From Patescibacteria group bacterium (GTDB taxonomy: Bacteria; Patescibacteriota; Patescibacteriia; GWA2-46-9), in NCBI GenBank assembly GCA_041660005.1, contig JBAZXG010000003.1:64835-128834 (forward strand): a stretch of 64,000 nucleotides of DNA. The letters run 5' to 3'. Shown one piece after another: positions 33,974 to 36,774 of this stretch (positions are counted from its first letter, which is position 1; every line of letters starts with the position of its first letter). Below the pieces are notes generated by a model. It made no database searches, was not told the origin of the DNA, and worked only from the letters and a program-made list of their open reading frames with translations. The translations under genes were made by a program, and so were the position numbers.

Positions 33974-34495
33974 ATGCAGCCCTATAGATTTAGTCCAATA
34001 GAAAATAAAGAACAGTTGTTAGAAGCTATAGAATATACGCATTTTAAATGTTTTGAGTTATGCAAAAAGAACTTTGGCAGATATCTTCCCGTTGCCGGTA
34101 ATATCGGAATATTTTCTCATTATGATGATGAGTATGAGTTTCTTACAAAGTTAAGAGAAGAACTAACTGAAAAGTCCGATAATTGGAACCATAAGTATTA
34201 CCGTCTTCTCGAGCCTATAAGAATTGCCGCAAAGGGTGATGTGCCTGATACTGTATATACTTATCTCTATATTCGTAAACCAGATAAGCATAAGGAAGTT
34301 GGCGATGTTGATTTTGTCTTGGGTCTCAATGAATTTAGTGAATTAAAAGACTCTTTACATCACAGCAAGGAAATCAAAGGTATAGAAGTATTCGACCGCG
34401 TTGACCTTGATCTAATTAAACTGTTCGACTCCGATACTGATGTCCTTTCTTTTATCGGGACGAAGAACATGACCGAAAATATACGACCATTATGA
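33974..34495 (+). CDS. Hypothetical protein (internal ATG start; the longer listed ORF overlaps the OmdA gene)
   Basis: ORF with no recognised motif. Its stop overlaps the next start (ATGA). Confidence 0.3.
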   Translation: MQPYRFSPIENKEQLLEAIEYTHFKCFELCKKNFGRYLPVAGNIGIFSHYDDEYEFLTKLREELTEKSDNWNHKYYRLLEPIRIAAKGDVPDTVYTYLYIRKPDKHKEVGDVDFVLGLNEFSELKDSLHHSKEIKGIEVFDRVDLDLIKLFDSDTDVLSFIGTKNMTENIRPL

Positions 34496-34749
34496 CCCCA
34501 TACAAACACACGCAAATTGGATATCTGATGCTGGTTGTTACGTTTTGTGTGCTGGTGCTCTTCGCATGGGCGCAAATTACGGTTCGGCTTGAGCCGCCCT
34601 CTGCCGACTCTGGAGCAAATTTTGCCATTACTGCGATAATGGTATTAGTTCTGTTTATTGTAACCGATTTCCACCGTCAAAATAAGACCGGAATCATGTC
34701 CACGGGGGCTATGGCCTATACCGTGCTTATCCTCTTATTCTTGTGTTAG
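34492..34749 (+). pseudogene. Truncated paralogous copy of the 36310-36774 membrane/PH-like gene (85 aa)
   Basis: The first 58 residues (MTPYKHTQIGYLMLVVTFCVL...VLVLFI) are about 90% identical at the DNA level to the 5' end of the gene at 36310, then the sequence diverges. Confidence 0.5.
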
Positions 34750-34846
34750 TTCCAATTATAGTATATAATTTAAACCAAAGGTACCCATATTTGGGTACCA
34801 ATATCGTACAAATCATCAATTTACTTGTAGTGAGCAAAGTCGCACT

Positions 34847-35494
34847 ATGGAAAAAGACTACATTTTAGACTTAATGAGATCAAAGAAGACTGTCTTTACT
34901 TTTAAAGACCTTATTTTGCTTTGGGGAGAATCTGACGTCAATTTTGTTAAGAAGAAGATTCATCGCTATGTTAAAGCTGGCAAAATGAACGCTGTACGCA
35001 GAGGCATTTACTCCAAAGATAAAAATTACGATAAATACGAGTTAGCTACAAAAATATATACTCCTTCATACGTCAGCATGGAGACGGCTTTAGGCGCGGC
35101 CGGAATTACTTTTCAGCTGTACGGGCAGATTTTTATTGCGTCATATACCACCAAAGAAATTGAGTGTGATGGGCAGAAATATTCTTATAAGAAAATAAAG
35201 GATACCATTCTCACCAATCAGGCTGGTATAGAGTCAAGAGAAAATTACAGTATCGCTTCGCGCGAAAGAGCATTTTTGGATGTTATCTATCTCAATAAGG
35301 ATTATCATTTTGATAATCTCTCGGCTTTGAATTGGGAAAAAGTATACGAAATCTTACCCATTTATCGTGGTAATAAACGTATGGCTAAGATGGTGAAAAT
35401 GTACCATAAAGCATTTTCTGCCGACTTGTCCGCCGAAGCCGCAGCGCAGGCGGGAGGAGGTCCGCCTCTAGCAGAAAGAATTCCAACTAGATAA
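34847..35494 (+). CDS. AbiEi-family antitoxin (type IV TA, wHTH N-terminal domain)
   Basis: DLILLWGESDVNFVKKKIHRYVKAGKMNAVRRGIY N-terminal AbiEi_4-like domain. Sits directly upstream of an AbiEii nucleotidyltransferase. Confidence 0.6.
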   Translation: MEKDYILDLMRSKKTVFTFKDLILLWGESDVNFVKKKIHRYVKAGKMNAVRRGIYSKDKNYDKYELATKIYTPSYVSMETALGAAGITFQLYGQIFIASYTTKEIECDGQKYSYKKIKDTILTNQAGIESRENYSIASRERAFLDVIYLNKDYHFDNLSALNWEKVYEILPIYRGNKRMAKMVKMYHKAFSADLSAEAAAQAGGGPPLAERIPTR

Positions 35495-35501
35495 TAATCA
35501 T

Positions 35502-36206
35502 ATGGCTCTTGATACCGCAAAGCATAAAAATGTTCTCATAAAAATCCTCAAGGATATCTATACTGACGCAACCATTAGTCCGATCTTAGGATTTAAGGGT
35601 GGGACAGCTGCTACATTTTTCTATAACCTCGACCGCTTCTCGGTGGATTTGGATTTTGATTTACTTGATTCAGACAAAGAGAACTACGTGTTTGGTCGTG
35701 TTAAAGCAATTATTGAGAATTATGGCAAATTAAAAGAGTCACGAAAGAAAAGATTCAATCTTTTTTATATTCTTTCTTATGACGACAAAGATATTAACGC
35801 CCAAAACGTCAAGGTAGAAATTAATCGCCGTGAATTCGGTTCAAAATATTCGGTGGAATCATTTCTTGGTATCTCGATGCAGGTGATGGTGAAAGAAGAT
35901 ATGGTTGCACATAAACTTTGTGCTATGTACGAACGGATTGGTAAGACGAATCGCGACATTTTTGATGTTCAGTTTTTCCTTTCGCACGACTGGCCTGTTA
36001 ATAAAAAAATTGTTGAGAATCGTACAGGTGTCTCGTATGCAGAATTTTTGAAAAAGTGTATTGATGTAATGGAAAAATTCGATGACAGCAATGTACTTTC
36101 CGGTATGGGTGAATTACTCACTGAGAAACAGAAAGCATGGGCAAAAACAAAGCTTAAGTCAGAGGCGTTGTTTTTGCTTAGGTTAGCTCTGGAGAAGGAA
36201 AAGTAA
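35502..36206 (+). CDS. AbiEii/AbiGii-family nucleotidyltransferase toxin
   Basis: GFKGGTAATFFYNLDRFSVDLDFDL is the NTase-fold hG[GS]...DhD motif. 234 aa. Confidence 0.65.
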   Translation: MALDTAKHKNVLIKILKDIYTDATISPILGFKGGTAATFFYNLDRFSVDLDFDLLDSDKENYVFGRVKAIIENYGKLKESRKKRFNLFYILSYDDKDINAQNVKVEINRREFGSKYSVESFLGISMQVMVKEDMVAHKLCAMYERIGKTNRDIFDVQFFLSHDWPVNKKIVENRTGVSYAEFLKKCIDVMEKFDDSNVLSGMGELLTEKQKAWAKTKLKSEALFLLRLALEKEK

Positions 36207-36309
36207 ACTTATATGCCAAATATAATCGCCGACAAAACCAAAAAACAGACTTACTATAAGTGCACTTCACTCACTATCCTCGGCAATAAGGTGATCACAG
36301 AATAGATTT

Positions 36310-36774
36310 ATGACTTCCTACAAACACACGCAAATTGGATATTTGATGCTGGTTGTCACGTTTTGTGTGCTGATGCTTTTCGCATGGGCTCAAATTACGG
36401 CCCGGCTTGAGCCACCCTCTGTCGACTCTGGAGCAAATTTTGCCGTTACGAGCATCATGGTATTAGTTCTGTTTATTCTTTCATCATTTGCGACGCTCAC
36501 AGTGTCGATTGATGAAAATTATCTTCGAGTTAAATTTGGCTATGGTATTTTCGCCAGGAAGTTTGAATTGAATCAGATAGCTTCAGTTAAAACAGTAAAG
36601 AATCACTGGTACTACGGATGGGGGATAAGGTTGTGGTTCTGGCCCAAAATGTGGATTTTTAATGTTTCCGGTTTTGATGCAGTCGAGCTCGTTATGAAAA
36701 ATGGAAAAATCTACCGCATAGGAACAGACGTTCCAGGAGAGCTTGAGACTGCGATCAAAGCGGTGTTAAAGTAA
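36310..36774 (+). CDS. Membrane protein with a C-terminal PH-like domain (full-length paralog of 34492-34749)
   Basis: Two TM helices followed by ...LRVKFGYGIFARKFELNQIASVKTV. Confidence 0.45.
   Translation: MTSYKHTQIGYLMLVVTFCVLMLFAWAQITARLEPPSVDSGANFAVTSIMVLVLFILSSFATLTVSIDENYLRVKFGYGIFARKFELNQIASVKTVKNHWYYGWGIRLWFWPKMWIFNVSGFDAVELVMKNGKIYRIGTDVPGELETAIKAVLK

Follow-up and report, generated by a model that had tools for sequence, protein, structure and literature searches.

An AbiE toxin-antitoxin module between two diverged copies of a membrane-protein gene start in a Patescibacteria genome

Introduction

How did an AbiE toxin-antitoxin gene pair come to lie between two copies of the start of one membrane-protein gene? 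The question is raised by a 64,000-nucleotide stretch (hereafter the window) of contig JBAZXG010000003.1, which belongs to a Patescibacteria metagenome-assembled genome. The membrane-protein gene, here named mem155, is present once in full and encodes a protein of 154 amino acids (aa) that is 100% identical to NCBI WC817_03035 of a Patescibacteria group bacterium, while its truncated upstream copy directly follows another conserved gene, here named up173. An earlier note on this DNA had read the arrangement as a mobile cassette whose insertion duplicated the 5' end of its target gene and left a decaying truncated copy. We favour a different order of events, to which we give an even chance: the locus would be a recombination scar, in which AbiE was placed between two already-diverged mem155 copies by homology-assisted or illegitimate recombination.

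Results

Two diverged copies of the start of mem155

A repeat search of the window found a single long direct repeat, 170 nucleotides (nt) at 89% identity with a spacing of 1818 nt (copies A and B; Table 1), and blastn between the two copies gave 89.4% over 170 nt (E=1e-62). This confirmed the direct duplication of a gene's 5' end, at about 90% identity, that had been described before. The coordinates then given (34491-34666 and 36309-36484) fell on the repeat, with right ends about 7 nt too long, since the similarity in a MAFFT alignment begins 2 nt before each ATG and stops after gene nt 168. The left edge (ATG-2) coincides with the start of family-wide mem155 conservation, and on the right the similarity of copy A is lost abruptly at 34659/34660, at codon 56/57 and near the end of the second mem155 membrane helix. 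The repeat is closed by an identical 21-nt run (34637-34657), and similarly long identical runs occur elsewhere within it. Extension beyond the edges was not significant (upstream P=0.08-0.09; downstream P=0.24), no inverted repeats were found at the segment ends, and the window holds no third mem155 copy. The open reading frames (ORFs) likewise bear out that copy A opens a truncated 85-aa ORF and copy B the intact gene, and the placement of AbiEi and AbiEii between the copies was upheld by PADLOC for both genes and by Pfam for AbiEii. The 85-aa ORF, whose ATG overlaps the TGA stop of up173 (ATGA), resembles mem155 only across its first 56-57 codons. It consists of mem155 codons 1-56, which cover both membrane helices, and 28 unrelated codons, a tail with no match in anything fetched, and its stop falls within the AbiE promoter.

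The divergence of the two copies bears most directly on how they arose. Over 57 codons they differ at 20 nt (11 of them third positions) and at 7 aa, all conservatively, without any stop or indel between them, and the ratio of nonsynonymous to synonymous divergence (dN/dS) is 0.19 with a dS of about 0.32. Random substitution would be expected to change 13.3 aa (P=0.001 for 7 or fewer). Changes were polarised with the mem155 family as outgroup and with the junction codon excluded, which assigned 4 synonymous and 4-5 nonsynonymous derived changes to copy A and 5-6 synonymous and 3 nonsynonymous ones to copy B. Decay of A from the split onward, with B under constraint, would be expected to place about 74% of the changes on A, whereas the observed numbers are near-equal (P=0.02-0.05). 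Such constrained, near-equal divergence points to copies that diverged as working genes before one was truncated. We therefore consider, with moderate confidence, that most of the divergence would have arisen while both were working genes and that the truncation is younger than the split. These results, together with a left edge at the start codon, argue against the proposal that the insertion duplicated the 5' end, and the near-equal distribution of changes argues against a truncated copy in decay.

The arrangement was further compared with Logan contigs of SRR18595301, an independent assembly of the same strain from a second sample. These reproduced window 29342-34542 at 99.94% identity, 34852-36622 at 100%, and the sequence from 36594 onward (overall range 99.94-100%). 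Both outer junctions were thereby independently recovered, namely that of up173 with copy A and that of AbiEii, the remnant of its neighbouring gene and the leader with copy B. The second-sample contigs show no empty site and do not cover 34543-34851. Only three mismatches were seen over the ~13.7 kb shared with the SRR18595301 strain (window 34485, 34487 and 34490), all in the last three codons of up173 (IRPL-stop versus IQTI-stop), abutting the start of copy A.

The AbiE module and its edges

The predicted AbiE promoter has a -35 box TTGTGT (34741-34746) and a -10 box TATAAT (34764-34769) separated by a 17-nt spacer, and is followed at 34780-34799 by a 20-bp palindrome, GGTACCCATATTTGGGTACC, which is conserved in register in more than 40 loci and was also picked up by a terminator scan. 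AbiEi autoregulation is known to act through inverted repeats in the promoter (PMC3985639), and by analogy the palindrome is a putative AbiEi operator. AbiEi matched the PADLOC profile PDLC02255 over aa 3-185 (profile positions 2-183 of 186), reached 29 bits against NCBIfam TAA_AbiEi, under the cut-off of 150, and had no Pfam match. Its last ~25 residues (about 191-215; window 35425-35494) form a tail rich in guanine and cytosine (GC), ending in ...SADLSAEAAAQAGGGPPLAERIPTR, which stands in place of the short ...KKDLK end of 191-195-aa homologues. Comparable tails were seen in loci L137, L138 and L125. A role of the tail as a hairpin element was rejected, as its RNA fold was no better than that of shuffled sequence (z = -0.7).

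AbiEii carries motifs I-IV as defined for the toxin family (I-II hG[GS]x9-15DhD; III a K amid hydrophobic residues, with R; IV +DxxD; PMC3985639), with KGGTAATFFYNLDRFSVDLD as motifs I-II (KGG...DLD, residues 32-51), KLCAMYER as motif III (138-145) and RDIFD as motif IV (151-155). In Streptococcus agalactiae AbiEii, mutating the motif I-IV residues abolishes toxicity and GTP binding (PMC3985639); judged by its intact motifs, the AbiE module of the window looks functional. The two genes lie on the same strand with the antitoxin gene first and a gap of 7 nt, a bicistronic arrangement whose gene pair recurs in 78-81 related loci. From family membership, AbiEii would be a toxin of the nucleotidyltransferase type that binds GTP and halts growth, for instance when a phage infects the cell, and AbiEi would repress the operon at the palindrome and counteract AbiEii.

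On its right side the module is broken. The full third gene encodes a 63-aa DUF7695 zinc-ribbon protein in loci L105, L107, L112, L135, L092, L106 and L118 (Pfam PF24749, 5e-10 for the L105 copy, L105:790-981), of which the window retains the first 18 codons. The homology of close AbiE relatives to the window ends inside this gene, with the break at 36266/36267, so that the inserted piece is a fragment and not a cassette with defined ends. It is followed by the 41-nt leader of the intact mem155, which had no match elsewhere except in the same-strain contig L091. On the left, a 79-nt filler separates the mem155 breakpoint from the module; it lies outside the homology common to other AbiE loci, and neither the 176 fetched loci nor the rest of the window contain anything that matches it. 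Because the terminator scan found no terminator-like site between AbiEii and mem155, the intact mem155 is now probably co-transcribed from the AbiE promoter.

Table 1 Features of the locus, of its surroundings and of the flanking repeats at four other AbiE loci (locus number given where coordinates are not those of the window).
Feature	Coordinates	Strand	Evidence or remark
T5orf172/MUG113 protein	29790-30515		
DpnI-like methyl-directed nuclease	31153-31629		
Schlafen/AlbA_2 protein	32591-33538		
up173, 173-aa conserved Patescibacteria hypothetical protein	33974-34495	+	ORF, sequence
Repeat copy A	34490-34659	+	5' 168 nt of mem155 gene plus 2 nt upstream
Truncated 85-aa ORF	34492-34749	+	annotated WC817_03020
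Filler, 79 nt	34660-34738		between mem155 breakpoint and AbiE module
AbiE promoter/operator region (predicted)	34739-34846	+	conserved in register in >40 loci
AbiEi antitoxin/repressor (by family), 215 aa	34847-35494	+	PADLOC PDLC02255 4.8e-59
AbiEii nucleotidyltransferase toxin (by family), 234 aa	35502-36206	+	Pfam PF08843 2e-15; PADLOC PDLC02324 6.1e-76
DUF7695 remnant, 18 initial codons of the third gene in the module	36213-36266	+	frame continues to stop at 36305
Leader of intact mem155, 41 nt	36267-36307		possible ribosome-binding site AAGGTGAT (36288-36295)
Repeat copy B	36308-36477	+	5' end of intact mem155 gene
Intact mem155, 154 aa	36310-36774	+	two transmembrane helices plus possible PH-like domain
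RelB/YafQ toxin-antitoxin pair	41030-41305 and 41305-41565		
L137 repeat	3596-3728/5747-5879		
L155 repeat	108-207/1581-1680		
L150 repeat	444-527/2012-2083		repeated piece is 3' end of upstream gene
L151 repeat	2844-2925/6670-6751		

Related mem155 and AbiE loci

Related loci were collected for both partners: 86 for mem155, many of them from species-representative genomes plus some contigs, and 80 for AbiE, fetched out of 153 relatives in metagenome contigs (57-92% aa identity). The neighbours of mem155 vary from locus to locus. AbiE lies near it in only one of the 86 (L052, 44% identity, 2.3 kb off), and up173 is adjacent to it in none. None of the 80 AbiE loci carries mem155 sequence, and their flanks are mutually unrelated. 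The edges of the module are nevertheless sharp and shared. On the left, the first position of similarity to the window is 34755-34758 for about 35 loci; where the -35 box is like that of the window, it is 34739-34740 (34739-34758 overall). On the right it ends at or just past the AbiEii stop in many loci and extends to 36266 in the closest relatives. Eighty related loci with sharp common edges in unrelated contexts support the view that the AbiE pair is a horizontally spreading module. The mobile toxin-antitoxin cassette of the earlier note thus holds as far as horizontal spread is concerned, but not as a clean cassette, given the broken right end and the fillers.

The uninterrupted arrangement, with up173 directly followed by mem155, was not found among the 86 mem155 loci or the up173 contexts, and no empty site was found in the 86 mem155 loci, the up173 homologues with contexts or exact-protein look-ups (same strain only). 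Two full-length paralogues in related genomes, which the earlier note had named as the sign of an ordinary tandem duplication, were not found either, none of the 86 loci having two full-length mem155 copies within 6 kb. A search with the 57-aa N-terminus of copy A for its full-length allele gave just short, frameshifted or decayed copies (L172-L176), none of them associated with AbiE. Carriage by phages was also considered and rejected, as no relatives of mem155 or AbiEii were found on IMG/VR viral contigs.

Several further features of these loci were recorded. The module similarity of many AbiE loci stops in the first 8-18 codons of the third gene (MPKEIANKTK...). At L097 the conserved start of this gene runs into a longer ORF with a DPPY motif, which may be a DNA methyltransferase. 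Hairpin-like short sequences with the motif CACCCCGTTAGA (or TACCCCGTAGGG) are inserted at varying places within or beside AbiE modules. In L093, L094, L114 and L151 they separate the operator from the AbiEi start, and in L101-L103, L108, L121, L124 and L132 they lie downstream of AbiEii. Possibly they are copies of a small mobile repeat in Patescibacteria from groundwater. In addition, mem155, up173 and the AbiE pair are unusually similar among distant Patescibacteria lineages (loci L001-L171), namely Uhr-, Magasanik-, Moranii-, Kaiser-, Zambryski-, Peregrini- and Absconditabacteria, and also bins labelled DPANN or other archaea. Similarity of this degree (about 57-92% aa among listed relatives) fits a shared, actively exchanged gene pool and suggests that the three would belong to one that was recently exchanged.

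Breakpoints and flanking repeats at other loci

A second genome breaks mem155 at nearly the same place. At L059, which belongs to a different Patescibacteria genome, a fragment of mem155 in decay (L059:2566-2743) starts at gene nt 167 and comprises gene nt 167-276 plus 397 to the end, 98% and 91% identical to the full copy of the same locus. The order there is fragment, a 423-aa gene, full-length mem155 (L059:4491-4958). Third-position entropy shows no dip at mem155 codons 49-58, so that no constraint at the DNA level was detected at the breakpoint, and the shared breakpoint may be a coincidence (roughly 1% a priori, and noticed post hoc) or an effect of the domain boundary.

Locus-specific direct repeats also flank AbiE at L137 (133 nt), L155 (100 nt), L150 (84 nt) and L151 (82 nt), with 75-99% identity, and shorter ones were found at L154, L159, L128 and L170. 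Structured RNA in these repeats was rejected as an explanation, since they had no Rfam match. Repeats of at least 80 nt flank 4 of 58 other AbiE loci compared to 0 of 228 control segments. Under a stricter same-locus control the counts were 5 of 34 against 3 of 153 for repeats of at least 25 nt (P=0.006) and 1 of 34 against 1 of 153 for those of at least 80 nt, so that the enrichment is suggestive but not robust. A broader proposal would have Patescibacteria AbiE modules spread without a transposase, by insertion-duplication or one-sided homologous recombination that routinely leaves diverged target repeats, and would add a recombination hot spot at nt 167-168 of mem155, because two unrelated genomes break there. 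We regard this proposal as doubtful. If the flanking-repeat pattern proves general, it would provide a sequence signature for recombination-driven spread of such modules.

Genomic setting and the two flanking genes

The locus is part of a low-GC island (window 29297-42113) that begins right after tRNA-Gln (29297-29370), with a GC fraction of 0.31-0.41 across 29.8-42 kb compared to 0.43-0.51 in most of the flanks. Together with AbiE, the T5orf172/MUG113, DpnI-like, Schlafen/AlbA_2 and RelB/YafQ genes mark it as a defence and toxin-antitoxin island. No transposase or integrase domain was found among the ORFs of 23.9-44.4 kb. Two formats for the island were rejected. No repeat of the tRNA-Gln end was found that would bound it, and an integron cassette array does not fit, because most intergenic gaps (4-80 nt) are too short for attC sites and an integrase is lacking (attC sites were not formally modelled).

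The protein encoded by up173 has 456 homologues, of which 120 listed are 61-98% identical, and no Pfam or NCBIfam match. A 228-aa ORF had been called mechanically at this place (33809-34495), but its true start is more likely 33974. The 5' extension in that call is overlapped by an OmdA/YdeI-like 81-aa ORF (window 33690-33935), which lies where the GC fraction of the island is locally high (0.48). For mem155, 3733 homologues were found (120 listed, ~73-85% identical, from many Patescibacteria lineages), with no family match in the profile libraries. The third-codon positions of the gene are far from saturated (mean entropy 1.2 bits). An AlphaFold2 model with a predicted local distance difference test (pLDDT) score of 63.5 shows two helices (aa 8-32 and 41-61) and, after them, a beta-sandwich with a helix at the C-terminus. 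The listed Foldseek matches in the PDB are mostly PH/PTB-type domains, all with weak E-values (at least 2.6e-3), so that the C-terminal part may be a PH-like domain.

Discussion

A proposed recombination scar and its rivals

Under the favoured explanation, the cell would have received DNA in which an AbiE fragment preceded a mem155 allele and which probably originated in a related Patescibacteria lineage. One side of this DNA would have paired by homology with the mem155 already present, and its other end would have become illegitimately linked to nt 168 of that resident gene. The incoming DNA could have been a linear fragment, integrated by homology-facilitated illegitimate recombination, or a circularised one, integrated by a single crossover (insertion-duplication). 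The outcome would be the resident 5' end as a truncated ORF coupled to up173, then the AbiE fragment, then one complete mem155 downstream. We infer this order of events, the kind of donor and the route from the anatomy of the locus, which has both a homologous anchor (170 nt) and junctions without homology. Homology-facilitated illegitimate recombination is an established process (PMC3240628), and genes for competence and pili are common in Patescibacteria, whose gene exchange is mostly with other Patescibacteria (PMC12455944). The recombination reading explains the sharp non-homologous inner junctions, the constrained divergence and the lack of mobility genes; as what lies upstream differs between the two copies, it also accounts for a repeat edge at the start codon.

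Several observations weigh against this explanation. Copies A and B are mutually the closest known relatives, with 89% nt identity compared to at most 83% for the 86 other loci, and 50 of 56 identical aa compared to at most 48 of 56 among 119 other proteins listed. Local duplication predicts the same, and the source of the second allele would be either an old paralogue or a lineage that is fairly close. The 28 nt directly upstream of both ATGs are 64% identical and collinear (P about 0.08-0.09), a similarity that would favour local duplication if real. Taken alone, copy A is not significantly different from neutral (P=0.16-0.23), and the selection tests rest on only 56 codons, which keeps the evidence for divergence as working genes at a moderate level. 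The junction stretch 34543-34851 is supported by the original assembly alone. Among the matches listed by the database searches, donor and empty site were absent from the 86 mem155 loci, the 80 AbiE loci, the close up173 homologue and the same-strain contigs, so that direction and order of the event are reached by inference only.

Mutual nearest relatives with constrained change in both are equally what old tandem paralogues would give: two full-length mem155 genes, both under selection, between which an AbiE fragment later landed, with a deletion that removed the 3' part of the upstream one. L059, with a partial mem155 upstream of a full copy and the 423-aa gene between them, offers a certain parallel. 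We nevertheless consider this unlikely, since no pair of full-length copies was seen in the mem155 set, extra steps (duplication, insertion, deletion) are needed, and the left edge at ATG-2 would be a coincidence, given that the upstream similarity is not significant. The model of the earlier note, in which AbiE insertion duplicated ~170 nt of its target as a very long target-site or repair-synthesis duplication, would account for a cassette between mutually closest copies, for the possible weak collinear similarity upstream of both ATGs and for the locus-specific repeats at L137, L155, L150 and L151. However, changes should then fall mostly on A and be mostly nonsynonymous, contrary to both tests above, and a dS of this size implies an old event, yet the arrangement was seen in no other genome examined. 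With no transposase or terminal inverted repeats and an AbiE piece that is broken and padded by filler, we judge this model improbable.

We think it very improbable that a non-autonomous integrative element targets mem155 near nt 168 and carries a replacement 5' end, as prophage e14 does with a piece of icd. Its geometry matches that of e14, icd and icdC (PMC13626634), the L059 fragment starts within 2 nt of the window breakpoint, and the 21-nt identical run ends the repeat. However, the 21-nt run is not the only one of about its length in the repeat, third-codon-position conservation gives no DNA-level constraint at the breakpoint, and the L059 order of fragment then full copy does not fit. 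Moreover, there is no integrase in or near the segment, and in the 80 other AbiE modules no mem155 5' piece is seen at the end. Least probable of all, and barely credible, is an assembly artefact in which two mem155 strain alleles were wrongly joined in the metagenome-assembled contig. The Logan contigs do break inside both copies and leave one stretch to the original assembly, but they break at sequences conserved among co-occurring species (tRNA, mem155, AbiEi), as expected of k-mer assembly. Both outer junctions were seen independently, and a mis-join would still need a truncated copy at this place, because the filler after copy A is unique sequence.

The AbiE module is of a known type of toxin-antitoxin system, and the locus taken alone is an ordinary recombination scar. 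Its value is that it shows a defence or toxin-antitoxin module lodged in a very small uncultured Patescibacteria genome without a mobility gene, together with the scar left by the module, a truncated gene start and a broken neighbouring gene.

Comparison with known systems

Direct repeats flanking an inserted segment recall the target-site duplications of transposons and insertion sequences. Such duplications typically measure only a few to about 14 bp and start out as identical copies. In contrast, the repeat of the window is 170 nt long and 89% identical, with neither a transposase nor terminal inverted repeats. Prophage e14 in Escherichia coli icd is another parallel, being likewise an insert with a complete gene on one side and, on the other, a partial copy of the same gene end that has diverged by mostly conservative differences, the displaced fragment icdC lying at its far end (PMC13626634). 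However, e14 brings a site-specific recombinase of its own and substitutes the 3' end of its target, whereas the window has no recombinase and the 5' end is involved, and other copies of its AbiE module come without a gene piece (0 of 80).

Homology-facilitated illegitimate recombination and Campbell-type insertion-duplication in natural transformation (PMC3240628) resemble the locus in their single homologous segment (here the mem155 5' end), in non-homologous junctions (here 34659/34660 and 36266/36267) and in the gain of foreign DNA without a transposase or integrase. In the window, by contrast, the anchor is only 89% identical and neither a donor nor a pre-insertion sequence was found; natural transformation would be a presumed ability of the window organism.

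The module itself compares with the AbiE type IV toxin-antitoxin and abortive-infection system of Lactococcus lactis and S. agalactiae (Dy et al. 2014, PMC3985639). Its proteins are very divergent from those studied there (AbiEi without a Pfam match and under the NCBIfam cut-off), it has one 20-bp palindrome in place of two 23-bp inverted repeats, its close relatives carry the DUF7695 third gene, and the C-terminal tail of AbiEi is replaced. Similar to the studied systems, which are widespread and occur on mobile DNA and islands, it has toxin motifs I-IV and an inverted repeat in its predicted promoter, and it shares with them the same two-gene, antitoxin-first operon of the AbiEi (COG5340) and DUF1814/AbiEii families.

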